DNA of 64,000 nucleotides from Pelagomonas calceolata (GCA_918797485.1 CAKKNE010000005.1:4154001-4218000); one strand, 5' to 3'; counted from the stretch's first letter, positions 1-52,300 are shown. Notes: generated from the sequence alone by a model not told the origin. Numbers and translations are program-made.

Positions 1-558
1 ACGGAACGAGGTTCGTACGGAGGCGCCGAGTACGTCCTCGCCAAAGCTCTAGCTGAATTACCATTGGACGCGTTCTTCGCGGCGCTCATGGGCTGGGGGC
101 TACATTTCTCCACACCAGGGGGTCTACGGTCGAGACCGGCGGGGCCGCTGGCGTTGGTCGCCGTCGCGGCGTCTACTTTGGGGTTGGCCGTCGGTGCGGC
201 TACGCCCGACGCGGATGCCGCGCTGGCGTTGGGCGTACCTCTGACGGTCATCCACATGCTCACGGGGATCATCAATCCCGCCGGCGAGAAGGCTCGCAAG
301 AAACCCGTGGCGGCTCTATCCCCAATCAAGTGGGGCGTCTCGTGGCTCATCGACCGCGAGTTCCGCGGCGCGACGCTACAGCGGGGCACGGGCCCTCGAT
401 TAGGCGGCCTGGCTTCCGTCGTGACGGGCGACCAGGTGCTCGAGCGGCTCGGTTTGGCCGCGACGCGGCCACACTTGGGGGCGCTCGTGGCGTTGGGGGT
501 GATTCATTTGACGGTCGCTGCTGTTTGCTCGGCGTTTCGCGGGCGGGGGCGGCGGTGA
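1..558 (+). CDS. ABCG-type ABC transporter, C-terminal transmembrane domain (5' truncated by window edge)
   Basis: Frame open from base 1: ERGSYGGAEYVLAKALAELPLD..., several hydrophobic helices and LSPIKWG, as in the ABC-2/ABCG membrane domain. Confidence 0.7.
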   Translation, partial: TERGSYGGAEYVLAKALAELPLDAFFAALMGWGLHFSTPGGLRSRPAGPLALVAVAASTLGLAVGAATPDADAALALGVPLTVIHMLTGIINPAGEKARKKPVAALSPIKWGVSWLIDREFRGATLQRGTGPRLGGLASVVTGDQVLERLGLAATRPHLGALVALGVIHLTVAAVCSAFRGRGRR

Positions 559-722
559 GTAGGAGTAACAATTAATTAATTGAAATTATTAGGCACTGTG
601 ATCAGCACTCTCGCCTCCGGACCCTCCGCTGGGGACTCCGGCGCACTCGTGGTGATTCTTAGGGGTTTCCCACATCCACCTCCTCGCCTCAGACGCAGCG
701 CCCTCTCCCACGACTCGATATA

Positions 723-13855: not shown

Positions 13856-16800
13856 ATGGGCTGGTTCTCCGGCCAGTCGAAAGCCGCCAAGGAGCTCGAA
13901 CGCAAGCGCCAGCAGGAAAAGGACGAGGAGAACGCGAAGCGGGCCGACGACGTGTGTGAGGAACAAAAAACGCCCTATCAAAAAAAGGTCGACAAGCCTC
14001 CCAATGTGTTGCGCGTCACGGTCATCCGGGCCAGGGACCTGCCCGCCGTCGACAAGAAGTTGTTTGGGAAGGGGCCGGCGTCGGCCGACCCCTTCCCCTG
14101 CATGAGCGTCGAGGGGAAGAGTGAGAAGGGTAGTGTGAAGAAGAAGAATCTGACGCCGGTCTGGTTGGAACGTTTTGAGTTACCTTGTGAAGATCCGGAC
14201 TCCGTCTTCAGTTTCGAGGTCATGGACCACGACAACTTCGGGGCCGCGGACTTCATGGGTTGCTGCCTGGGTGGAAATCAAGTGCAAGCGCCCTTGTCCG
14301 AGATCGCGAGACGCGACCGCTCGCACTCGGCGAGAAGCGAGGAACGTCTTCATGAAGATGGCGTGAACCTGACTCACTCGTTGATGTCCACGCAGGTTGC
14401 GTGAAGGTCAAGCTCGCGACCCTAAAAGACGAGCGCGCCCACCGGAACTGGCACAAACTAGGCAATACTAGTGGAGAGCAGGACGAGCATGAAAGGGGCG
14501 AAGTAGAGTTGTGTCTGAGGTGGTGCCACGACAAAGCAAGAGCCTACGACCTGCCCAAGGAGTTCAAAACGAGTGAAAAAGCGGGCACGAAGGCCATGCC
14601 CAACGAGCTCCATGTCTACTTGGTGCGCGCGCGAGATCTGGAGGCCATGGACAGTGGTCTGTTGGGGAAAGCGTCGTCGGACCCCATAGTCGTCTTAGAT
14701 GTCATGGGCACGTCATTCAAATCCACACAAAAAAAGAAGGAGCTCAATCCCGTGTGGTTGGAGAGTTTCTCGTGGGCGGTCGAAGACGACGAAGCTATAC
14801 TAGAGGTGGTTGTGGAGGATTACGACCTGACGGGCAACGACTTCATGGGGCGCACGAGTGCGATCTCGGCGTCCCGTCGACTCGTGTCCATCTCACGATG
14901 CCGGGGGTGGTTTCTTTTTCGAGTTTGAGGCCGTTCGGACCGCGTCGGGGCCGTGCGGCGTGTCGGAGGGTACGCGGTCGCGGCGATGGCGTGAGGATGC
15001 TGCGACGCCGTCTTCATGATCACACGAGAGGGAGCCGTTCGGACCGCTTCCAGTGAATACGATGCGCCGCGCAGGCATACCCCTCAAGACGCTGTCGGAC
15101 CGCAAGATCCACCGCCAGTGGCACCGGTTACTTGGTCCCAAGCTCAAGAAGGGCCAGAAGAAGCAGCCGGTGAAGAAGCGGGGGAGGATCGACTTGGCGG
15201 CGCGGTGGGTCCATAATCCGAAGCTCGTGGTACCGTTGCCGCCCGAACTCCAAGCGTCGGAGTTGCACTTCGACCGGCCGGCGAACGAGGTACAAATATT
15301 TTTGGTGCGGGCCGCGGGGTTACCTGTTATGGACCGGCATCTCATGTCCAAAGGCGGGTCGTCGGATCCCGTCGTCACGTTCTCGTGTTGTGGAGAGAAG
15401 GCTACTAGCTCAATCAAGAAAAAAGATTTAAATCCGCAGTGGGCCGAGTACCATTCCTTGCTCGTGGAAGAGGACGACGCGGAGCTGCTGGTCGTCGTCG
15501 AGGATTATGATTTGATGGGCGCGGGGCGGCGTCCTTTCGTCGCGTCGATGGCGTGACGCTGGTGTCTCCGAGAGTGCCGTACCGCCCTATGCCATCGACG
15601 CGTCTCGACGGCGTCGCGTCGACGGCGTCGCGCAGGGAAGTGTCGCCACGCTGGAGAGTCCCGCACCGCCCCGACGCCGTCGCCGCGCGCAGGCAACGAC
15701 TTCATGGGCCAGCTGACCATCGATATCAAGTCCCTCGAGGACCGGCGCGTCGACCGCAGGTGGCACGTGTTACGACCGAAGCCCACGCTCGCCAAGAAGA
15801 AGGAGGAGGAGAAGAAGCTGGGCAAGTTAGAGTTAGCAATAAGGTGGAAGCACAACCCGGAGCGCGTCATCCAGCTCCCCGAGGCGTTCCACCACGACGA
15901 CCTCCTAGACCAACCCGCGAACTACCTCCAGATCTGCCTCGTGCGCGCGAGGAAGCTGAAGATCATGGACAAGTCGCGACTCACGTCCGGCGGGTCCTCG
16001 GACCCCCTAGTTCATTTTATGATAGATGGCGAGAGCGTCACGAGCACGACAAAAAAAAAGAACTTACGACCAATTTGGAGAGAGTACTTCGAGCTACCTA
16101 TTGAAGATGAACAACAAACATTGCACTTGAAAATGGAGGATTATGAAGCACTTAGTGCGAACCAGGTCATGGGCCGCTGTCACGTGGCCATGTCTCACTT
16201 AAAAGGGAGGGAGACCTTCCGGAAGTGGCTCGAGCTGGTCGATGAAGATAAGAAGGACGCGGGCTGGGTCGAGATCGCGCTGCGGTGGGCTCATGATCCA
16301 CAACGAGTTTTAGACTTACCTGAGGAATTTACGGAGCCCGAGACCGAGGACTGCTTGTCCAAGGAGGCCAATGAATTATTAGTTTGTTTATTACGAGGCA
16401 AGAACCTGCCCGTGATGGACAAAAACTTGATTGGTGGAGGAGGCTCGAGCGACCCGTGCGCGTTCCTGAACTTGGACGGGGAGAAGCGCAAGAGCCGCGT
16501 CGTCAAGAAGAGCATCAACCCCCAGTGGATGCAGACCTTCCGCTTCCCTTGTGATGATGGACTGAACGTGACGCTCCAGTGTGGAAATCAACCAGTGCGT
16601 CGGGTGCACGATGACGCGACGAACGCGCCGTAAAATTTGATGTCCACACAGGTCACGCTCCAGGTCGACGTCGAGGACTACGATTTGAAGGGGAACGACT
16701 TCATGGGTCCGTTTCTCGGCGTTTTGAAGGTTTGCGGTGCCTTCACTTCGTTGTCATGGCTCTTTGTCGAGTTTGAGCTGTTTCGGACCTCGCGCTCGAG

Positions 16801-19531
16801 CTTGGCCCGTGTGTTGACATGTCGCGTCGATGGCGTCGGGTGCCGCCCATACGCCATCGATGGCGTGCGAGCTGTACCATAGCCTACGGAGGGGCAGTGG
16901 ATTTGACGGAAATGCCCCGCGCAGGCCAGTGCGGCGTCTACCTCGGAGACTTGCACGAGGTGGAAGAGAGACGAGTCGAGCGGGTCTGGTACGCCTTGGC
17001 TCCCGAGGGCGTGAAGACGGAACGGTACGGGAAGAAGGAAGAAACGGTGAAGAAGCAGCAGCGAGGCTCTAGACGGTCGAAAGGCGGCAAAAAACAGCGC
17101 CGATCGTCGACGATCGACGAGGACGAAGTCACAGTGAAGAAAGGACCGAATTTAGGAAGGATCGAGTTCGCCTTGCGGTGGGTCCACAACCCCGATCTTG
17201 TGGTCACGCTGCCGGACCAAATTTCGAGGGACGAGGTCCATCCCGACGAGGAAGCGAACTCGTTGTTGATAACATTGGTGCGGTGTCGGAACCTGCCGGT
17301 CATGGATACTGGAGTGTTTGGTGGGTCGAGCGATCCGTACTGTGTCATACGCGTCGGCGACGAGCGGGTCAAAAGTACGGTGCGAAAGAAGGATTTAAAT
17401 CCCGTCTGGGTCGAGTCTTTTGAACTGCCCAATAGTGATAAAGATGCGAAGGTCGTCTTCGAGGTCTTAGATTACGACGCCTACGGGACCTCGGACCCGA
17501 TCGGGCGGTTCGCGTTGCCCTTTTTAGCTTTAGCAGATAGGAAGCTGATGCGGCGGTGGTTCGTGCTCAAGGACCAGGTACGCGACCGGTGTCCGTTCGC
17601 TTCGTTCGCGTCGATGGCGTGGAGGGCAGAGGTCGCGTCGATGGCGTCGCGGCGACCGCTCGCGCTCGACGCCATCGACGCGACACGTGCTGGGGCCCGG
17701 ACGCCACCGAGACGCCATCGACGCGACGACGCGATGTTAACTCTCGGAAACACGCAGGCGGGCCAGAAGACGGGCGGCAAGTGCGAGGTCGCGCTCAAGT
17801 GGCACGTACCCGCGTCTCGCGATCCCGGCACCCAAACTCGGCCACGACCTCCGAGAGATACACTCGACGGCGTAGAGCGAGCAGCACCTCACCCAGACCC
17901 CGAGAGACCCTGAATTTTGATTTCCTCGCAGGCAGCACAACCCCGACTTCGTCCTAGACTTGCCCTTTGACATGGCCGGTAATGATGATTTGTTAGATAT
18001 GCCCCCGAACCAGCTCCGGATCTGCTTGATGCGCGCGCGCGAGCTCCCAGTGATGGACGTGGCCGAGGGGCTCGCCTCGGGCAGTTCGGACCCCTTTGCG
18101 ACACTCGTCGTGGAGTCAATAACCAAGGACGACATGAAGGACAAGCCTCAGGTGTTGAGGAGTACGACGAAGGTCCAATCGTTAAGACCGGTCTACCTCG
18201 CGGCGTCCGAATCCACTCAAAATCGCAACAGAGACCACCCATCGCCTTCTCTGATGGACACGAGTCGCGTCGACGCCGCGAGAGAGCCAGAAAACCGCGG
18301 CAACACGCGAAACCGCCGCCACACGCAGGTCTGGATGGAGCGCTTCGACGTCCCCGTCGACGATGCTGCGGAGAAGGAGCTGACCGTTAGTTTGTACGAC
18401 GACGACTTTGATGATTCAGAACCTGAATTAATTGGTAGCGTGAAGATACCGCTCAAACGTAGTCTACAGAGGAAGATGCTGCAAGATTGGCACGAGCTCT
18501 ACAATCCCGAAAGGGCGGCGCGATTGGCCATGGAGAATTCTCGACGACGATCGGAAGATAGTTTGGATGGGGAAGACTTAGCTCCCACCGACACCAAAAC
18601 GGGGGAAGTGGAGGTCTGTCTGCGGTTAGTCTACAACCCCAAATGTAGGGTACCTTATTATGATCTCACGGATAAGCAAGATCTGGAAACCATCGCGAAC
18701 ATCTGTTCCGACGCCGTGGAGAACGGCCGGGACGAGCCTTTGAAGCTGTTGGTGGTGCGGTGCGCGACGTGCGACCATGTGCTGGTGGACGAACATCGAG
18801 GTGTCACGCCGGCGATGGTGGCTGCTTCTCGCGATGAAGATGCTTCGTTGACGTTCAAGTTGTTGCGAAGGTTAAACTGCGATCTAGACCAGAAAGATCG
18901 AGCGGGCAGAACGGCGGCCCACGTCGCGGCCAAATGCGGCAACGACCGAGCTCTGAGAATCCTGGCCGAATTAGACGCTAATTTGTGCGCAGAAGATGCC
19001 TACGGCAAGCAGCCCTGCCACTACGCTGCTGAGCAAGGTCATGATAGCACTGTGGAGCGATTAGTGAAGCTTGGAGCCGACCCGGAAGACCAGACCCACA
19101 ACGGAAGGAGTTGCGCGGCGCTGGCGGCGCAGAACGGCCGGGCGTCGACGGTCAAATTGCTGCATGACCTCGGGGCCGATATTGATGAAGTCGGAAGCAT
19201 GTTCGGCGGTCGGAGGCCTCTCCATTTTGCCTGCGCGACGGGCGACGCGGAGACGGTCCGCATGCTACTGCGGTTGGGGGCCGACGCCGATGGTACGGAT
19301 AATATGCAGAACGGCCCGGCGCACTGCGCCGCGCTCGAAGGTCGACGAGATATTGTGCAACTACTGGGCGAGTACGACTGCGACCTCGACGCGGTGAATG
19401 ATGACGGGCTGACGCCGGCGCAGTTGCTGGCTCAGTTTGCCGCAAAAGACTCGGGGGGCGTCGTTAATACAGGTGCGGTGGAGTGGGCGCCGATGGCCAC
19501 GGCGGAGCCGGCGCCCAAACCGGCCGAGTAA
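13856..19531 (+). CDS. Protein with seven tandem C2 domains and C-terminal ankyrin repeats; 9 exons (introns 14259..14395, 14858..15074, 15519..15692, 16568..16651, 16707..16924, 17578..17757, ~17802..17931, 18191..18328)
   Basis: Seven copies of (N)xLxVxLxRAxxLxxMD...SDP...KKxLNPxW.E.F...DYD..GNDFMG, then TAAHVAA/PCHYAA/PLHFAC ankyrin motifs; splicing restores one frame. Confidence 0.85.
14259..14395 (+). mobile_element. Introner family A intron
   Basis: TIR CTGGGTGGAAATCAA...TTGATGTCCACGCAG; degenerate TSD GTTGCTGC/GTTGCGTG. Confidence 0.8.
14858..15074 (+). mobile_element. Repeated intron family B (homologous to 25914..26055)
   Basis: Shares GTGCGATCTCGGCGTCCCGTCG, CTTTTTCGAGTTTGAGGCCGTTCGGACCG and TTCCAGTGAATACGATGC with the ValRS intron. 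Confidence 0.85.
16568..16651 (+). mobile_element. Introner family A intron (short derivative)
   Basis: TSD GTGACGCT/GTCACGCT; TIR CAGTGTGGAAATCAA...TTGATGTCCACACAG. Confidence 0.85.
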
Positions 19532-23545: not shown

Positions 23546-26500
23546 ATGGCGGGTTTCGCAACGATCGCCGCGCTCGACGAGCATTCGTTTGTCTACGGCT
23601 GCTTGCACGATGTAGCTGCTGCAGCACCAGCGGCCGCACCCGCAGCGAGCGGCGGCGCCGTCCCCGCGAAGTTGGTGGAGGAGTGCAAGAAGGCCGGCGA
23701 GGCCGTCGCCGCAGCCAAAAAAAGTGGAGCCTCCAAGGATGAAATTGCGGCCAAGGTCGAGAAGCTCCTATCACTGAAGAAACAGATCACCGCGCTCGAC
23801 CCCACCCACTCTTTAGCAATAGTAGACAAGAAGAAGAAGGCCAAAGCAGCACCTGTAGAAGAGAAGAAGGGCCTTTCCAAAAGAGAACAGAAGCGCCTCG
23901 CGAGAGGCGAGGACGTCAAGAAGAAGAAGAAGGACAAGGATCCCAATAGGTGGGCCGTCGACCCCGCGAAGGCCGCGGCCAAGGCCGAAAAAGCTAGACT
24001 GAAGGCTCTAGCTAAAGCGGAAGCCGAGAAGGCCGACGTCAAAGCAATTGCACCTCCAACGCCGAAAGGAGACAAAAAAATACTGGCCGAGCAGATGTCG
24101 AGGACCTACAACCCGGGCGACGTCGAGGCCGCCTGGCAGGACTGGTGGGAGAAGTCCGGCTGGTACGGCTGCGACGAGAAAAAAGCGTTGAAGCGACCGG
24201 CCGACGAAAAGTTCGTCATGGTACTACCGCGTGTGTGGAAATCAAGTTCAAGCGCCCTTCAATTTTTGGTGTGTCGCGGTCGGCGCGAGGTGTTTCTGTC
24301 CATACTCGGTCGCGTGCATCGCTCGGAGGTCGTGTCCGAGTTTGGGCCTCTCAGATGACCGCGGTGCCGAGATAGCGAGGGACGCGTCGCGTCGATGGCG
24401 TAGAGACCTCGACGACAACCTGACTCACTGGTCGATGTCCACACAGGTCATCCCGCCGCCGAACGTGACTGGTAGTCTGCACTTGGGCCACGCCCTCACG
24501 GCGGCGATCGAAGATTGTCTCACGCGGTGGCACCGCATGCGGGGCGACGCGACGCTGTACGTGCCCGGTACCGATCATGCGGGCATCGCTACCCAATCGG
24601 TCGTCGAGAAGATGCTGGCCAAGCAGTCTCCGCCGGTCTCGAGGCATGATTTGGGGAGGGAAAAGTTCCTGGAGCACGTCTGGGCCTGGAAGGGCCAGTA
24701 CGGTAGTCGCATCTGCACGCAACTGAGAAGGCTTGGTAGTAGCGTGGACTGGTCTCGGGAACGGTTCACGATGGACGAGCGCTGCGCCAAGGCCGTGACG
24801 GAAGCTTTTGTTAGATTCCACGAGGCGGGCATCATGTATCGGGCGTCTCGCCTCGTGAACTGGAGTTGTGCTTTGAAATCAGCCATCTCCGACCTCGAAG
24901 TCGACCACTTGGAACTCAATGGTGGCGAGCTGCGGACGGTCCCGGGCCACGGCGCCACGAAGTACCAGTTCGCCATGTTCACGGAGTTCGCCTATAAAGT
25001 TATAGGTTCGGATGAGGAGGTCGTCGTAGCTACGACACGCTTGGAGACGATGCTGGGGGACGTGGCCGTCGCTGTCCATCCCAAGGACCCTCGCTATAAA
25101 CACTTGCACGGCAAGAAGTTGAAACACCCCTTCTTCCCTTCTCGTGTTGTGACAGTCGTAACCGATGATGTGTTAGTTGACATGGACAAGGGCACCGGGT
25201 GCGTGAAGGTGACGCCGGCCCACGACCCCCACGACTACGACTGCGGGAAGCGGCACGCGCTGCCGTTCATGACCATCTTTTCGCTGGACGGGCGCGTCGT
25301 GACGCAGTGCACGCCGTTTTCGGTCACTGGTGCGGGGGACTACCCGGTCGAGGTGTTCCCATCGTGGATTGCCGGTCAGATGCGCTATGATGCTCGAGTG
25401 TTGGTGGAGAAGAAGCTTGATGAGTTGGGACTGTTGCGAGGCAAAAGCGAGAGACCGATGACCCTAGCTGTGTGCTCTCGTAGTGGTGATATTATCGAGC
25501 CGTTGGTGCAGCCCCAGTGGTTCGTGGACTGCACGGGGCCCGCGAAACGGGCCTGCGACGCGGTCAGGGACGGGTCTCTCAGAATAAGACCGAAGATGCA
25601 CGAGCGGACGTGGTTCAAGTGGTTTGTTGCGGCGTCCTTGCATCGACGCGTCGACGCCGTAACGCGCCACACCACGCAGGCTCGAGGACATAAGGCCCTG
25701 GTGCATCTCGCGCCAGCTCTGGTGGGGCCACCGGATCCCCGCGTGGTTCGCGTTTCGGAAAGGTGAGTCGAGAAATAACGTCGACGTCGACGCCGAACGG
25801 AATAAGGAGCGGTGGATCGTGGCCCGGTCGGAAGCACAGGCTTTAGCACAAGCACAAAAACTCCTGGGGACGAAGGACGTGACCCTAGAACGCGACGAGG
25901 ACGTCCTCGACACGTGCGATCTCGGCGTCCCGTCGTGTACAGGCGCCTTCACGCCGTCGATGCGCGTCGTCTCCATCAGACGAGGTCGTGGGTGGTCTCT
26001 TTTTCGAGTTTGAGGCCGTTCGGACCGTTTCCAGTGAATACGATGCTCCACACAGGTGGTTCTCGTCCGGCCTCTTCCCCTTTTCCGTGTTCGGCTGGCC
26101 CGACGACACGGACGAGTTCAAGGCCTTCTATCCGACGCAGTTGCTCGAGACGGGCCTCGACATCCTCTTCTTCTGGGTGGCCCGCATGGTGATGATGGGG
26201 CTGCAGCTCACGGACAAGTTACCGTTCACGGATGTGTATTTGCATGCCATGGTGCGAGATAAGGACGGCCGCAAAATGTCGAAGTCGCTGGGGAACGTCA
26301 TCGACCCCCTGGAGGTCATCGACGGGTGTCCCTTGGCGCAGCTCGTCGACAAGTTGAAGGCTGGGAATTTAAGGGCTTCTGAGGTCAAGAGGGCGGAAGA
26401 AGCGTTCAAGGCAGACTTCCCCGAGGGCATGCCGCGGTGCGGCACGGATGCTCTCCGAGTAGGGTTATTGGCATACACGGTCCAAGGCCGGGACATCAAC

Positions 26501-27993
26501 TTGGATATTAAGAGAGTTGTCGGTTATCGAAGTTTCTGCAACAAGCTCTGGAACGCCGTGCGGTTTATGCTGGGGACCTTTGACGACTACAAAGCGTCAG
26601 AAAATCTATGGAGTACACTGAAACCTCTCGCGGGCCGAGACAAGTTCATCCTATCACGCTTAAGAAGGTGTGTCTTGGACGTCAACACGTGCCTCACGGA
26701 GTACAAGTTCGGCGAGGCCGTGCAGGCCATCTACCACTTCTTCTTAGATGATTTATGTGACGTTTATGTCGAGCTCGTGAAACCCGTCATGTACGACGAC
26801 GATAAAAAAGGTAAAGGTAGGGACGCGGCGAAAATGGTCCTGTGGGCCTGCTTGGATGCTGGTTTAAGGTTGTTGCATCCGCTGTGTCCCTTCGTGACCG
26901 AGGAATTGTGGCAGCGGTTACCAAGAACCTTTGCCGTTAGCTCAATCATGGTCGCGCCCTATCCTACTCCGTCAGAAGTTGATACGTTCGATAACCAAGA
27001 GGCGGAGCGAGGCACGTCCCTAGTCTTGGAGACCGTCACGGGTGCTCGCTCGTTGCGAGCTCAATATTCACTAGCGAACAAGCCCGCGCACTTCCACGCC
27101 GTGTTTAGCAATGATGCGGAACGAGCATCCATACTAGAGGGGAGGAAGGACGACTGTAGCACACTCATGCGGGCCGCGTCGGTCAGTATCGGGAATAATG
27201 TGACACCTCCAAAAGGGTGCGGCCAGAAGCTCGTCGACGACAAACTCAGTGTCCTGGTGGACCTCAAGGGTCTCGTGGACGCGGATGCCGAAATCAAGAA
27301 GCTCCAGAAAGAACTCAAAACGGTCGAGCCGCTCGTCGCGAAATTAGAAGCGAAGATTAAAGACGCTCGTTACCTCGCGAAGGCGCCGGAGAAGCAACGG
27401 GTGCAGGACCGGGAGAAGTTGAAATCTTATGGCGACAAGGCGGCTGCGGCGCGTGCGGCCATCAAGTCGTGGGAGGAGTTCAAGTCGGGCGGTGGTGAGG
27501 AGGAGGAGGATGATTTCTGGGCCGAGGACGACGAGGACGATCCGGCGGCCGCGGCGGCGCTGGAGGAGGCCAAGGCCAAAGCCATGGCCAAGCTCGCGAA
27601 GAAGGAGGCGAACCAGCGGTCGTTATCTGTGCATAGATTAAATTGTTGCGACGCGTCTCGCGACGCCAGCTCGATGGCGTGGCGGGGTCTCCCACCCAAC
27701 TTACCGGTTGATTTACGCACAGGTCGTTATGTAACCTCGAGATCAAGCCCTGGGAGGCGGACCAGGACCTGAAGGCGCTCTACGCCAAGATCAAGGCGAC
27801 GGTCGTGAAGGACGGGCTCAAGTGGAGCGAGGGGTTGAAGTTGGTCGACGTGGCCTTCGGCGTGCAGAAAATTATCTGTACTGCGGTCGTCAACCAGAGC
27901 TTGTCCATGGACGCCATCATCGAAGAAATCACTGAAGAACTCTTCACGGACGAGGTCCAGTCCATGAGCATGACTTCGATGTCGCTGCTCTAG
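23546..27993 (+). CDS. VARS: Valyl-tRNA synthetase with N-terminal WHEP domain, fused to a C-terminal eEF1B GEF domain; 5 exons (introns 24221..24446, 25622..25679, 25914..26055, 27619..27722)
   Basis: [50 protein letters not shown]; acidic linker then [12 protein letters not shown]...GLKW...VAFGVQK...DEVQS. Confidence 0.92.
24221..24446 (+). mobile_element. Introner family A intron
   Basis: GTGTGTGGAAATCAA...TCGATGTCCACACAG; removal restores [12 protein letters not shown]. Confidence 0.8.
25914..26055 (+). mobile_element. Repeated intron family B
   Basis: Homologous to 14858..15074; interrupts the conserved DVLDT|WFSSG. Confidence 0.85.
27619..27722 (+). mobile_element. Introner-type intron with perfect 8-bp TSD
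   Basis: GTCGTTAT-CTGTGCATAGATTAA...TTGATTTACGCACAG-GTCGTTAT. Confidence 0.9.
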
Positions 27994-28022
27994 TTGGCTA
28001 AGAGATTTAGTTCATAGTAGTA

Positions 28023-29396
28023 TTAAACAACGGCCCCGCGCGGGCTGTCGAGCTTCGACGGCGGGACGCGCCCCATGGGTGTCGGCACGCGCTCCCCTTG
28101 GACGACCGGCGGCTCGTACGACGACTGACGCTCGGACATCTCCAGGGACCGTTGGTTCGACCGCTGGTCCTTCTTGCACCGGGCACAGATGGCCATTATA
28201 CTGATAATGATAACCATAATGAGGACGAGTGCGAAGAACACCTGTAAGCCACTTCGGCTGCCGTGTACATACTTCTTTTTAGCGGCCGCGACGGTCGGTG
28301 CTTGCGTAGGTTTCTGTGTAGGTTGGAGCGTCTCCTGCATGAGGTCTGCGGGGCCGCAGCACCTGCGTGGAAACGCGTCGATGGCGTGGGGGCGGACGCG
28401 TTTGATTTCCGCACGGTCTGTCACTGGTATATCGCCCCTTGGCCGAAGGCCGCCTTGCACGGAGCCCAGCCGGATTTTCCTGTAGGGTCGGGGGCCGGGT
28501 GGTAGCCCGCGATGCCACAGCCACGTTTCTCCCCTTCGGGAGCGCAGCAGTCGCTGTCGCGGTCGACGCAGATGTCGGACCGGCACGTCTCCTTGTACTC
28601 GTCCTTGGGGATGCAGCACTGGTAGATCGCGTCCTGGCCGAAGGCCGCCTTGCACGGAGCCCAGCCCGACCGCCCGTGCATGTCCGCCGTGACCTTGTAG
28701 CCGTCGACCTTGCACCCCCGGGGCTCGTTCTTCGTGCCCTGTTCGCCGCCCGTCGCGCAGCAGTCGTCGTCGCGATCCTTACATATATCGGAGCGGCACA
28801 CTTCGTTCGGGCTAGCAAATTCCGTATCTCTGCAACACTTGTAGGTCGCGTCCGTGCCGAAGGCCGCGTGGCACGGCGCCCAGCCGCTCCGGCCGGTGGG
28901 ATCGGGCTTTACCACAAAGCCAGGGATACTACATCCGCGGGGCTCGGGCTTGTCGCCCGCGCCTTCGCCACCGAGCGGCGCGCAGCAGTCGTTGTCCCTG
29001 TCAAGGCCTGCGTGCACAAAAACGTATCGCGTCGATAGCGTGGAGGCTCGTCTCGGGAAACGCACATATGTCGGTCCGGCACTCCTCCTCCTCCGACGGC
29101 GTGACGGTTGGCGCGAAGGTCGAGCGCCGGGGCGGCGGAAGCTCCGACTCGCAGGTGTCGCACGTTTTTCTACACGCCTCCTGCGCCGTTCTGTCGTCGC
29201 CGTGGACGTCGCAGCGCGTCGGCAGGAGCTCGCTCACCCACTGGCAGTTCTTGGTCTCGTCGTCTTTTTTGTGCCAGGTCGAATCGTCGGCGCAGGCCGG
29301 CGGCGACGGCTCCGCCGGGCCCGAAGCGGGCGGCGGCGTCTGCGCGTGGATCGAGGCGAGTATCAGAGCCGCTCTGAGCATCGACCGACGAGACAT
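28023..29396 (-). CDS. Type I membrane protein with an ShK-like Cys domain and three novel Cys-rich repeats; 3 exons (introns 29008..29065, 28363..28424)
   Basis: Signal peptide; 3x CRxDICxDRDxDCCA...RGC...GxSGWAPCxAAFGxxAxYxCC; TM helix FFALVLIMVIIISIMAICA. Confidence 0.75.
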
Positions 29397-31255: not shown

Positions 31256-33526
31256 TCATCGAGTCCTTATTACTTGGCGCGAGCAGTTGTCACGCTTAAC
31301 GAGGCAAGCCAGGCTTCGGGGCAATGAGCGGACCCTCGCGCAATTCGACAGGGACTTCAGCAACGGCGCCAGGGAACCACTCTCGCGTTCGTAGGTATCA
31401 TCGTTGTACGCGTAGACCGGCTGCGCCACCTGCCATCTTCTTAAATCATCGTGGGACCCTCCCCGCGGCGGACCCGCGGCGGATCGAGGTTCCCGGACGC
31501 TTGGATGGGCGAGATGGGCCGGAACGACCGCCCGCAAGAGACTCCGCGGATCAGCAGCAAAGTCCGCCAGATCCACGGTCCAGTCGCGCGCGCTGGGCCT
31601 CCGCCACTTCCTCTCCGCCTCGTTGATCATACACCTTTTTAAGGCCGTGCACGTGGCGAAGGGCTCCGACGTTCGGTAGCAGGTCCGCTTCATCAGCGAC
31701 CAGATCTGATTCGGGGCGTCTCTCGTGCAAAAGATCATACCTGTGTGGAAATCAAATTTACGGCGCGTTCGTCCTGAATTGCCGCGTCGACCTCTACGCC
31801 ATCGACGCGACGCCTGTTCGATGGCGTGGCAATGACGGTTCCTCACCGCTCGACCGAGCCAGGACGGCCGCGTCATCGCCGAGAAATGGCTTAGTGAAGA
31901 ATTGTCGGGTGCACCCGACGCACTGGTTGTTTTCCACACAGGATCATGCGGGCCGCCGGAAACTTGCGCCGCAACCCCTCGAACCGGCGCACGTCGCGCG
32001 GACTGTTCGTCGGCTTCTTGAACACCGTCCACTCCGCGGAGCAGGCCTCCTCCACGTGGTCATCCGGCCACCGCTCGTCCCGCCCGCCCCGCAGCGGCAC
32101 GCCCAATCGTTTCGCGAGCTGCGCGCGGAGGACGCTCGTGAAGCTGTGGTGGAAGCCCCCGATGACGATTAACCTTTCTCCGTCGCAGAGCTTTTGTGCG
32201 GAACTGAGGCGTCGTCGTGGCCGTACGTCCCTACCGAGCTCTGAAACGAATTGGTGGAACTCGAGGCCGAAGCGATCCCACTGGTGGACCGCCGCCGACC
32301 GCGTCGTCAGGTCGTCCTCGAGCACGTAGCCCGCGGCGTCGCGAATCTTCCAATATTCTCCGATGTTGACGTGCGTCGGCGGGAGGTAGCCGGCGTGGCG
32401 CGGCCGCGAGCCGTCGAGGCTTCCCACCGTGTTGACGACGCCGTCGCCGCGCGTCTCGACGAAGGTCTCGGCCGGCAGATTGCCCGTATAAAATAGATAG
32501 TTCAAATATCCTTGATCTGAAGGTACTCCTTTGTGGTGGCAGTCGTGCGCGTCGACCTCGTTGAGCAGTCTTGTTTCAAAATTCACTATTGCTGGTTGCG
32601 CACCCATATACGAACCAGAACAGAGCACGGACTGGTTGCGCAGCCGGTCCCACTCGGCGCGGCCCCAACAGTTACGAACCCAACCGCCGTTGAAGGGGCA
32701 ATTCCCTACCTTCTTGAAGGGCCTGCGCGGACGGATCAGGCATCGAAATGACGCCGCGGCGATGGCGTGTCTCGCGCAATCGAGGAGTCAAGTGAAGAAT
32801 GAACGAAAATCCCTGGGACGCCGCGACGCACCAGTGCTCCGCGACGACGAGGAGCTCGAGGCCCTCGAGGCGTCTTCCTCTCCGTTCAATAACGCGCTGA
32901 AATGGATCCGCCTGAAAAAACGTGTCGCGGTAGTCCGCGACGTAGAACATGCTGCGCGGCGAGTACGTCTTCGCGATCGCGAGATACAACGCGTGGCGGA
33001 TGATCGCGAGCGGCAGGGGCGGCTGGCCCTCGCGCCACTTGCAGGTCTTGTGCTTGATGTTCCCCCCGCTAGACGCGCTACAGTCGGGCACGAGGCCGTA
33101 GGCGACGACGCCACTCTTCCGCAGGTAGGCCTCGCAGCCGCGCTGGAGCCTGCTCCGCGGCTCCGTGATGAGTGTTATGTCGCCCGTGTATCCCGCTCGT
33201 CTCAAGCTGCCGACGAAGGCCCGGTGCGAGAACTCGCGGTAATTCAGCGCGAGCCCGGTCACAACGTCGGCGTCGTAGCGTTGCGCGGGAAACGGCCACA
33301 AGGGTTCTCCCAACGGTGCCGGCGTGCGTGGCTTAGCGAGTTTCCCGGGCGCGTCGGTGACCGGCCGCCGATTCGCCAGCGGCGCGGGCCCGAACATGGG
33401 CGGTCGCGCGGCCCATTGCGCCTTGACGTCCTCCGGAGCCCGGAACCCGCTGATCCAGTTGCCGTTTCGCCAGCCGCGCTGAGCATCGGCAGTGCAAAAT
33501 AGCAGCAGCAGTCTCATTGATGACAT
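31256..33526 (-). CDS. Secreted/Golgi glycosyltransferase-like domain fused to a sulfotransferase-like domain; 3 exons (introns 32723..32831, 31741..31949)
   Basis: ADYRDTFFQADPF, LCSG, SDQGYLNYL, VHQWDR; then IVIGGFHHSFTSVL and MIFCTRD (PAPS-binding-like). Confidence 0.65.
31741..31949 (-). mobile_element. Introner family A intron (GC-AG)
   Basis: TSD GCATGATC/GTATGATC; TIR CTGTGTGGAAAACAA...TTGATTTCCACACAG. Confidence 0.88.
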
Positions 33527-49390: not shown

Positions 49391-52300
49391 ATGGCAGCAA
49401 CCACTGCCAGCGAGGCGGTGCGCGTCACGCTCTGCAAGTCGCGCCGCCCTTTGTTAAGGCTCGACGTGGCGCCCTTCGCACTCATCTATGCTCTATTACA
49501 CGCATACGCCTGGATTTCGTTAATGAACGGCACGATATCGTACGAGACGCTCGCGTGCATCCCCGTCGCGCTCGCCGCGCACCTACTCCTCTTCCTGAGC
49601 ACGCGCTGGTCCGTTAGAATCAGATGCTGGGTCGCCTTTAGGACATGCGATCATAAGGATGCGACGCACGCGCTGGCTTTGTCGTCGACGGCCGCGCTCT
49701 GCGAATTAAAAGAGGAGGCACCTAGAGGCCGCTTCTTCTCATTTCAACGTAGAATATACGTCCAAGACGGTCCTACCTGGCGACCACATGCACCAAAGAC
49801 CCAGAGACCGCTCGCCGAGCTAGCACAGTGTACAGGATTGGAAACCAACGAGCAAGAAACGACACAAAGGAGGAGCTGGGGCCCCAACGCCTTCAACATC
49901 GAGGACCCGACCTTTTCCGAATTATTCGAGGAGCACTACCTGGCGCCGTTCTTCGTGTTCCAGGTCTTTTGCTGCGTTTTGTGGAGTTTAGACGAGTACT
50001 GGGTCTATTCGGCGTTCACGCTCGTTATGTTGTTATTATTTGAAGCTACTCTATGCATACAACGACTAAGAAACCTGGAACAGTTGCGAAGCATGCGGCG
50101 GCCCGCGCGGTTACTGTATGCCTACAGACAAAAAAAGTGGCGGCCCGTCATGTCCGACGACCTGCTACCGGGCGACGTCATCGCCCTCTCTTCTACTCAA
50201 AGACGGAAGGACCCGATACCCGTGCCCTGCGACTGCTTGTTGCTAGGAGGCTCGGCCGTGGTCTCAGAGGCGATGCTTACTGGTGAGAGCGTGCCCCAGC
50301 GCAAGGAAGGGTTAATCGATGCTGATTTAACTACAACGCTAGACGTCGACGGTGGTCATCGGAAGCACGTCCTGTTCGGGGGCACGGATTTGCTGGATGC
50401 GAGTCGTGGAGACAGCACGAGGTCTACACCCCCGAACGGCGGCGTCGAAGCGTTGGTGCTAAGGACGGGCTTCGAGACCGCACAAGGTTCACTCATGCGC
50501 ACGATCCTCTTCGCGACGGAGCAGGTCACTGGTAGCACGGAAACCGGAAAGTTTATTGGCGTGTTACTTATCTTCGCCGTCGTAGCCGCTCTCTACGTCC
50601 TCCAAGAGGGTCTGAAGGACCCGAGGAGAAACCGCTTCAAGCTCGGGCTCCACTGCATCCTCATCATCACGTCCGTCGTGCCGCCCGAGCTGCCGATGGA
50701 ATTATCTCTCGCGGTAACAAATTCCTTGCAGGCCTTAGGTCGCTCGGGCATCTTCTGCACGGAGCCCTTCCGCATCCAGTTCGCCGGCTCCGTCGACGTC
50801 TGTTGTTTTGACAAGACCGGAACACTTACCAGTGATGAATTGACGGCGCGCGGCGTCGCGTTTTCATCTGAGTTCATTGATGATAGAGCGAACCTACCAG
50901 CCGACACGTTGCTCGTGTTAGCGAGCTGCCACGCCGTTTCTAGAGGTTCAAATGGGTTGCTCGGCGATTCGCTCGAAAGGGCGCAGCTCCAATTTGCGGG
51001 TGTGGACCGTCCTGACAAGGTCCGCGTCCTGAAGCGATACGGCTTTTCGTCGGAGCTGCGCAGGATGACCTGCGCCTGCGCGCAAGGCGCTTCTACGGTT
51101 GTTACTTGCAAGGGCGCGCCCGAAGCGCTGAGGCCGCTCCTCCGAGACGTGCCGGCCGATTACGACGCGTTGTACGAGCAGCACGCGTCGAGGGGCATGA
51201 GGGTGCTCGCTTTAGCTTCTCGGGCCGTATCAAGTCAAATGGATTGGAAGAGTGTCGAGCGTTCGACGGCCGAAGCTGATCTAATCTTCCGGGGTTTCCT
51301 GTGTTTGACCTCGCCGCTCAAGCCCGGAACCAGAAACGTCATCCAACACCTACAAGCGTCCGGCCACAAGTGCGTTATTATTACGGGCGACAACGTGCTG
51401 ACGGCGGCGCACGTCGCGCGGTCGGTGGGCATTCTGGGCGATGACCAAACGTGGGTCTTGACGGCGAACGGCGAGTCGCCGGTCTGGCGGTCAGGTAATA
51501 GCGTAAAGCCCTTCGCGGCCGCACCTTCACAAGGCTTGTGCTGTCGCGGCGACGCCCTCGCGTCGTTATCTGAATTACAGGTCGCGATCGTCGCGTCGCG
51601 CTGTTCGGTATTTGCTCGATTCTCGCCGAAGCACAAGGAGAAGATCGTGGACGCCCTTAATAAGAGAGGCGTCACGACTTTGATGTGTGGTGATGGGACG
51701 AACGACGTGGGCGCGTTGAAACGAGCTCACGTCGGCGTGTCGATCGCGAACGCGCCGGAGCTCGAGAAGCGACTACCTTCTACGTCGGAAGACGTCGCGA
51801 CGATGAGGAAAACTTTAGCTGATGCGGAGCTATCGCTCTCGGACCAGGACCCGTCCCTGGTTCGATTGGGCGACGCCTCCATAGCGTCACCATTTACCTC
51901 CAAGAGAGCTACCATAGAATGTGTCTTAGCCATCGTGTGTCAAGGCCGGTGCACGCTCGTGAGCATGATCCAGATCTTCAAGATTCTGGCCGTCTTATGT
52001 CTCGTCTCGGCGTACATGCTGTCGTCGTTGTATTTGCACGGTGTGAAGCAAGGAACTGAGTGGAAATCAAATTTCGGGCACCCACGCCATCGACGCGACG
52101 TTGTCCCCGTGGCCGCGTCGGGTCGATGGCGTGGAGGCTCACTAAGGTTCACGCGAATGACCTAACTCACTGGTTGATTTCCACACAGGCAAGGTGATGC
52201 CCAGATGACCGTGTCCGGTATCTTGACGGCGGCGCTGTTCTTCTTGACGTCGCGGGCGAATCCCCTCGAGACGCTGTCGAAGAAACGGCCGCCTCGAGGC

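Follow-up and report, generated by a model that had tools for sequence, protein, structure and literature searches.

Is a valyl-tRNA synthetase (ValRS) of the pelagophyte alga Pelagomonas calceolata covalently joined to the guanine-nucleotide-exchange (GNE) domain of eEF1B, and if so, what may such a tail do? The question is raised by a stretch of 64,000 nucleotides of its genome (GCA_918797485.1, CAKKNE010000005.1:4154001-4218000), referred to at its full length as the window, with positions counted from its first letter. An original prediction, made from the sequence alone, had read one frame from the ValRS arm through an acidic linker into an eEF1B domain, across an intron at 27619..27722. 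This reading is confirmed by 221 spliced RNA reads and by identity to a transcript protein, P0121, and the covalent ValRS-EF1_GNE fusion is real.

The gene, its transcript and its domains

The ValRS-GNE gene lies at window 23546..27993 on the plus strand and consists of five exons, whose spliced coding sequence of 3918 nucleotides (nt) is translated into 1305 amino acids (aa). The start codon is the ATG at 23546, an in-frame stop is present upstream, and all four introns are of the GT..AG type (4/4). The predicted product is identical over 1305/1305 aa to P0121, an MMETSP transcript protein marked 'type:complete' whose UniRef name is Pelagomonas calceolata valine--tRNA ligase. When P0121 was aligned to the window by tblastn, the matches covered 23546-24229, 24447-25622, 25681-25914, 26024-27676 and 27721-27990; the final exon borders were set by the RNA joints, which replaced these limits. 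The features of the gene are as follows.

23546..24220, plus strand: exon 1, with the start codon, the pelagophyte ValRS N-terminal motif, the WHEP-like helix pair and a Lys-rich stretch; tblastn match to P0121
about 23678-23797, plus strand: WHEP-like helix pair, aa 45-84, within exon 1
24221..24446, plus strand: intron 1, 226 nt, GT..AG, with pieces of a dispersed repeat inside; joint 24219>24446 in 6+7 reads
24447..25621, plus strand: exon 2, class I core with HLGH at aa 237 and the editing domain; tRNA-synt_1 209.1 bits; 100% identity to P0121
25622..25679, plus strand: intron 2, 58 nt, GT..AG; joint crossed by 15+3 reads and by one RNA contig
25680..25913, plus strand: exon 3, continuation of the catalytic core; tRNA-synt_1 59 bits; 100% identity to P0121
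25914..26055, plus strand: intron 3, 142 nt, GT..AG, also with pieces of repeats inside; joint crossed by 22+3 reads and by one contig
26056..27466, plus strand: main part of exon 4, with KMSKS at aa 768, the anticodon-binding domain and the coiled-coil tRNA-binding arm; Anticodon_1 117.9 bits, Val_tRNA-synt_C 32.4 bits
27467..27618, plus strand: end of exon 4, acidic linker and Lys/Ala-rich helix; from about 27559 almost identical to paralogous eEF1B-type genes
27619..27722, plus strand: intron 4, 104 nt, GT..AG, with a 9-nt direct repeat, GGTCGTTAT, at both borders
27723..27993, plus strand: exon 5, EF1_GNE domain and TAG stop; PF00736 68.3 bits, E 6.4e-19; 100% identity to P0121
27994..28016, plus strand: 3' untranslated end; the RNA contig stops at 28016 and read depth is zero by 28007-28071

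All four joints are visible in two stranded poly(A) RNA runs from the same organism. Across intron 4, perfect-match poly(A) RNA reads were counted in four runs from one sample, and the spliced form (27617>27722) is present in 221 perfect reads (130+45+24+22). In addition, a 1697-nt RNA contig passes from 26216..27617 directly to 27722..28016 with zero mismatches, and the depth within intron 4 (approximately 11-16 in RNA set X21) is about one tenth of that in the flanking exons (107-156). The depth of perfect reads shows no break between unique ValRS sequence and the tail, and no cluster of molecule starts is seen in the RNA reads at the linker or the last exon. With these results and an EF1_GNE match of 68.3 bits, none (0/3) of the observations that the original prediction had named as contrary to it was made, namely, transcripts ending before the linker, a separate transcription start for the eEF1B part, or the lack of an EF1_GNE match.

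Paralogue reads also map to 27559-27760. In fact, the match to the window begins only at 27559 in 91 X21 reads, which have paralogue sequence to the left of it; variant letters occur at 27580, 27616 and 27729 in 25-38% of reads, and 12 perfect reads diverge from the window at 27622 into sequence found only in L005, a locus described below. Furthermore, the deposited genome model (CAH0377776.1; P0125, 1266 aa; window 27619-27772) reads through intron 4 to a stop and misses EF1_GNE. An unreal fusion, whether an assembly chimera, read-through from a neighbour or reads of a free eEF1B messenger RNA mapped onto a dead exon, would draw on these paralogue reads and on the truncated model, but it is extremely improbable given the 221 reads over the joint with continuous depth from unique ValRS sequence, the mismatch-free contig that connects 26216 to 28016, the identical full-length transcript protein, the single open frame at the junction in relatives, and an architecture that is preserved down to 71-75% ValRS identity.

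From its N-terminus, the protein contains a WHEP-like helix pair, a complete class I ValRS, the coiled-coil arm, the acidic linker and EF1_GNE. In the Pfam scan (cut-offs of 20.8 bits for EF1_GNE, 25.9 for Val_tRNA-synt_C and 32.5 for WHEP-TRS), tRNA-synt_1 covers aa 197-845 (461.1 bits) and Anticodon_1 covers aa 890-1037 (115.7 bits) of the whole protein, and the class I signatures HLGH and KMSKS are found at aa 237 and aa 768. Val_tRNA-synt_C matches aa 1103-1165 above its cut-off, with 30.9 bits on the whole protein and 32.4 bits on the exon. The eEF1B catalytic domain expected at the C-terminus is present: EF1_GNE matches aa 1221-1304 with 60.6 bits on the whole protein, and the last exon alone reaches 68.3 bits (E 6.4e-19) over profile positions 4-87 of 88. 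The last exon likewise aligns, at E ~3e-08, to the eEF1B exchange domains whose structures have been solved from yeast and human. The ValRS arm is separated from EF1_GNE by an acidic stretch, in which a DDFW motif occurs, and by a Lys/Ala-rich helix, and the acidic DDFW stretch aligns to the same region of the Pelagomonas-group eEF1B. No GST domain is found in the Pfam scan of the ValRS-GNE protein.

The WHEP domain that had been proposed at the N-terminus is a borderline call. In the window protein, WHEP-TRS (PF00458) scores 28.7 bits for the exon (E 1.3e-06) and 25.8 bits for the entire protein (E ~1e-05), below the cut-off, whereas the orthologue P0007 from Pelagophyceae sp. CCMP2097 reaches 36.0 bits, above it. 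Among natural proteins with solved structures, the WHEP-like region is matched best by human MetRS (2djv, E 1.5e-4) and HisRS (1x59, E 0.046), in both cases by their WHEP domains. A further suggestion, that the extreme N-terminus recalls that of eEF1B and that ValRS may have been inserted within an eEF1B gene, is not borne out. The first 100 aa have no BLASTP similarity to the N-terminal domain of the eEF1B P0194 or to the small GNE proteins. The N-terminal motif (window 23546-23620; L/V-D-E-Y/H-S/A-L/F-I/V-Y) is conserved in pelagophyte ValRS (homologues P0002-P0008) and is absent from the ValRS of Ectocarpus, Thalassiosira and Phytophthora. Since it is present in pelagophyte ValRS (P0004 to P0008) irrespective of the tail, it is native to these enzymes, and ValRS was not inserted into an eEF1B gene; we infer that the tail was added after the natural C-terminus of ValRS. 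A relationship of the motif to the N-terminus of the small GNE proteins (P0230, P0232, P0282 and the L005 open frame) or to a ribosomal P1-like helix was also considered and dropped, as the motif profile gave only E 8.8 (P0230).

Distribution and origin of the tail

Among the 120 best long ValRS homologues, PF00736 is recorded in two, P0002 (83% identity) and P0003 (71%), and the sequence of a third, P0001, is cut inside the GNE domain. The P0003 cluster includes the Aureococcus protein XP_009040042.1, with EF1_GNE at 62.8 bits. The ValRS of CCMP2097, Chrysophaeum and others (56-63% identity) end directly after the arm. Nine metagenome loci (L010, L011, L016, L017, L019, L026, L027, L028 and L030) also encode ValRS followed by GNE. 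The fusion is thus conserved in Aureococcus and several uncultured relatives. A more divergent ValRS-GNE protein, P0164, carries a module that is 52% identical, and its ValRS part is no nearer to pelagophytes than to other stramenopiles. ValRS-GNE proteins are already present in public databases, where they are named valine--tRNA ligase.

A search with the tail found 11 long proteins that bear it: four ValRS, four SerRS, two GlyRS and one LysRS. The host identity is clear for GlyRS (P0157 against 2pme, E 4.7e-194) and LysRS (P0161 against 6chd, E 1.1e-191), and one of the SerRS proteins (P0162) comes from the dictyochophyte Rhizochromulina marina. The modules of GlyRS (P0157, P0160, P0165), SerRS (P0158, P0159, P0162, P0163) and LysRS (P0161, L020) are of the same kind, with a ...MTSMSLL end, and are 66-82% identical to that of the window; their hosts are class II enzymes, unlike the class I ValRS. 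Among the tail matches, none of the GlyRS, SerRS or LysRS modules falls at 90% identity or above, the Pelagomonas band. The SerRS fusions, from dictyochophyte-like algae, carry WHEP and an entire eEF1B at the C-terminus, including its N-terminal domain (P0158 residues 609-864 against P0239 residues 2-241, E 2e-84), whereas the tails of ValRS, GlyRS and LysRS are without this domain. As judged by these alignments, GlyRS, SerRS and LysRS are shown to end in related modules in pelagophyte and dictyochophyte relatives.

Two further kinds of module-bearing sequence were observed. In a 240-aa fragment, P0251, the last part of a protein-kinase domain leads into the same linker helix and GNE. A third kind of gene is represented by L005 (402-1136) and also by L006 (proteins P0230, P0232, P0282 and P0283); its products, of approximately 185-245 aa, have a short N-terminus unrelated to that of eEF1B, an Ala/Pro/Lys-rich hinge, an acidic stretch and GNE, and reads matching L005 occur in the RNA of the culture.

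The presence of a separate eEF1B gene, for which the original prediction had suggested a search, is established for the Pelagomonas group (P0193, P0194, L001) and for Aureococcus (61384 = P0223). The free-standing proteins P0193 and P0194 and the locus L001, which is separate from ValRS, encode an eEF1B N-terminal domain of the SYVEGY...YRWY type and then the same linker helix and GNE. The module of the window is identical to those of L001 and P0194 at 86 of 90 residues, with four differences. From LEEAKAK on, four of approximately 110 residues differ from L001, and at the DNA level hardly any difference is seen in the first 36 codons; the assignment of the linker to eEF1B is therefore upheld by its homology to the free-standing protein. 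Similarly, the module of the Aureococcus ValRS differs at one of 90 residues from that of its own eEF1B (P0223), whereas the Pelagomonas and Aureococcus modules are 78% alike. In P0223, a Ribosomal_60s match (28.0 bits, cut-off 28.1) falls in the Ala/Pro-rich hinge and acidic stretch and is not taken for a true P-protein fusion. The module alignments show the tail to be a copy of one half, the C-terminal one, of the free-standing Pelagomonas-group eEF1B. In the codon comparison with L001, four differences are non-synonymous and 28 are synonymous; by this measure, the GNE module is under strong purifying selection, which fits either an exchange or a docking-only role.

In a tree of 31 modules, the clades track the lineage and not the host gene; four clades (starred in the tree) are mixed, and ValRS and eEF1B modules of the same lineage come together as starred clades at 98/96 and 98/89. 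The ValRS modules form one clade in 0 of 200 bootstrap trees, and a tree constrained to unite the seven pelagophyte ValRS modules is worse by 76.9 log-likelihood units and is rejected (approximately unbiased test, p-AU 1.7e-08), for a group that was chosen after inspection of the tree. The pair L004/L010, for which an origin in the same species is assumed, has 92.6% nt identity, compared to 82-84% to other lineages. A direct comparison of paralogues within one genome was tried as a test of gene conversion and set aside, since the ValRS-linked metagenome locus L016 is as distant from the window as the paralogue L001 (27 and 28 codons with synonymous differences, respectively). Gene conversion is argued instead from the tree, the L004/L010 pair and the near-identical tract in RNA of the same culture. 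On these grounds, the simplest reading would be an old graft that gene conversion has since kept uniform with the free gene; the alternative is independent recent grafts. The late choice of the constrained group and the fact that the compared metagenome loci come from other genomes than that of the window both count against the reading by conversion.

Introns and dispersed repeats

The last intron of the gene carries the flanking duplication that had been predicted, in the form of the 9-nt repeat at both borders. In the eEF1B gene at L001, the intron-4 site is uninterrupted and has one copy of the repeat. Intron 4 is also missing from the ValRS loci L016 (open frame 2..652) and L010 (1..3399), in which the arm and the domain lie in one frame; the fusion is therefore independent of splicing. 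Judged from the sequences, intron 4 is likely a recent insertion, and it has two marks of the introner type, namely, a duplicated target site and related copies in which the site is empty. Elsewhere in the window, its sequence gives a single 25-nt match at 31806-31830. According to a published account of the P. calceolata genome (PMC9481584), there are 0.45 introns per gene, with a length peak at approximately 210 bp that is typical of Introner Elements; the 104 nt of intron 4 are about half of this length.

Pieces of intron 1 recur in the window at 14265-14394, 17831-17909, 31792-31813 and 52111-52187. Within this intron (24244-24417), opposite-strand RNA reaches depths of 28.6 and 14.7; loose ends are numerous, and one joint is of the 'opposite strands' kind. 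The results suggest a dispersed and transcribed repeat, possibly introner-like. Similarly, intron 3 (25914-26055) has stretches of 22-77 nt in common with 14858-15074 and 18205-18281. A second joint in intron 3, 25932>26001, is found in 19+25 reads and has 17 foreign letters, so that these reads derive from related copies elsewhere.

In L024, L025, L026, L028 and L030, the GNE-coding part has introns at differing sites (after domain residues 22, 32, 39 or 52), and in L024 and L025 the intron end is the same as in the window. By this comparison of sites, the gene is still gaining introns. Short inserted introns can hide domain fusions, as exemplified by the deposited P. calceolata model without EF1_GNE. 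Directly downstream of the ValRS gene, a minus-strand open frame (28421-29233) encodes 270 aa, in which a Cys-rich repeat (…GRSGWAPCKAAFGQ…CC…) occurs three or four times.

Possible functions of the tail

To our knowledge, the GNE domain has no partner other than eEF1A. Since eEF1A is its sole known partner (yeast structures 1F60, 1IJE and 2B7B), the tail is predicted to hold eEF1A. The tail would do so on a flexible acidic linker just past the tRNA-binding arm of ValRS; eEF1A could be reloaded there with GTP and could take up Val-tRNA as it leaves the enzyme. On balance, we favour this reading of the locus, namely, a five-exon ValRS gene whose messenger RNA adds the eEF1B-alpha linker and EF1_GNE and whose tail likely tethers eEF1A, with Val-tRNA passing directly to eEF1A-GTP.

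Several points weigh against such a hand-off. Pfam EF_1_beta_acid gives no match in the linker at E up to 0.05. A free eEF1B exists, and the tail is thus unnecessary as a source of exchange activity. The argument that release of aminoacyl-tRNA (aa-tRNA) limits the rate does not apply to the class II enzymes GlyRS, SerRS and LysRS. The window domain ends in ...SMSLL, with Leu and not Lys or Arg at the penultimate position. This position was counted in 145 of the 150 best representatives of 535 matches, the partial proteins P0278, P0279, P0286, P0289 and P0290 being left out. The conserved C-terminal pattern is present in 100 of the 145, with penultimate Lys in 41, Arg in 7, Leu in 38, Val in 10 and other residues in 4. 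The Leu and Val forms (48 of 100) all stand in the nearer part of the match list, and all modules of tailed synthetases end in ...SMSLL or ...SMNVL. The penultimate residue is presumably the counterpart of yeast Lys205, the alignment with the solved domain stopping two residues short. In yeast, the K205A mutation makes exchange 13-fold slower (PMC9292714). Exchange catalysis by the tail is a candidate activity only, because Leu stands where the canonical Lys or Arg would be.

These results lead to the strongest alternative, in which the tail would have a docking-only or regulatory role, binding eEF1A or keeping eEF1A-GDP without exchange, and acting either purely as a tether or as a brake by which the supply of the elongation factor would be coupled to charging. 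The Leu at the canonical Lys/Arg position, shared in the Leu/Val form by nearly half of the comparable representatives, is in its favour. So is the slow yeast mutant, since K205A still aids growth, from which its authors infer a function beyond exchange (PMC9292714). On the other hand, the free-standing eEF1B of the Pelagomonas/Aureococcus group has the same penultimate Leu, and this residue is therefore no peculiarity of the fusion. For Aureococcus, Table S1 of PMC3938643 lists eEF1A and a single eEF1B, 61384, and no EFL. As eEF1A is kept, EFL is absent and the sole listed eEF1B has Leu, the Leu form probably works as the exchange factor serving eEF1A in this alga, unless eEF1A recharges itself there. 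A docking-only tail is worth consideration, though we regard it as unlikely.

A weaker alternative is that the tail serves assembly, recruiting ValRS and the other tailed synthetases into an eEF1B-like or multi-synthetase particle by contacts other than those with eEF1A. The same tail is indeed found on several synthetases, and the SerRS fusions bear the whole eEF1B including the N-terminal domain, which binds eEF1B-gamma in other organisms. However, the ValRS, GlyRS and LysRS tails are without that domain, and only eEF1A is known as a GNE partner, so that this explanation appears quite improbable.

A wider reading may be put forward tentatively. It is possible, though the odds are rather against it, that the exchange half of eEF1B is a portable eEF1A-docking cassette in pelagophytes and dictyochophytes, placed on at least four synthetases (Val, Gly, Ser and Lys) and a kinase, kept identical to the free eEF1B of each genome by gene conversion, and working without the catalytic lysine. 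If this is true, tRNA charging would be covalently wired to the elongation-factor cycle, and the cassette would provide a 'Rosetta stone' for the channeling of aa-tRNA as well as a variant exchange mechanism. The lysine is missing in every member, including the sole listed Aureococcus eEF1B, which raises the question of how eEF1A is recharged in these ecologically important picoalgae.

The hand-off of aa-tRNA from synthetase to eEF1A without free diffusion is an old and unsettled matter, for which vertebrate and archaeal complexes, all of them non-covalent, have so far supplied the evidence. A conserved and expressed ValRS-GNE gene is independent genomic evidence for a functional coupling of charging with the eEF1A step, as are its GlyRS, SerRS and LysRS sister genes, and the fusions are simple recombinant proteins suited to tests of coupling. 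A full-text literature search found no published account of a synthetase-EF1_GNE fusion. In a survey of eEF1B across eukaryotes (PMC3938643), the word synthetase is absent and the only fusion mentioned is that of eEF1B with a kinase in Thecamonas, which recalls the kinase-GNE fragment described above.

Compared with canonical eEF1B-alpha (yeast Tef5 in 1F60, 1IJE and 2B7B; human 1B64), the fusion shares the acidic linker and EF1_GNE (E ~3e-08 over residues 2-88 of 90), but a whole ValRS replaces the N-terminal domain that binds eEF1B-gamma, and the penultimate residue is Leu, at a position where 48 of the 100 comparable representatives carry Lys or Arg. Compared with the free-standing eEF1B of Pelagomonas and Aureococcus, the linker helix and GNE are the same and ValRS again stands in place of the N-terminal domain. 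WHEP and GST-like domains appended to synthetases are also grafted interaction modules, but they are docking domains rather than an exchange domain. In vertebrates, the ValRS-EF1 complex ties ValRS physically to the exchange factor of eEF1A, which is thought to favour the hand-off of Val-tRNA; as described in PMC4394549, this link is non-covalent and is made through a GST-like domain confined to deuterostomes. The Pelagomonas ValRS, by contrast, is without a GST domain and bears the exchange domain itself at the C-terminus, in agreement with the predicted convergent, covalent link that is independent of the vertebrate complex. In archaea, LeuRS and EF1A likewise bring a synthetase and the aa-tRNA carrier together for channeling, by direct non-covalent contact and without an exchange factor (PMC2094089). 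By analogy, ValRS-GNE may be regarded as the covalent counterpart of both the vertebrate ValRS-eEF1B and the archaeal LeuRS-EF1A complexes.

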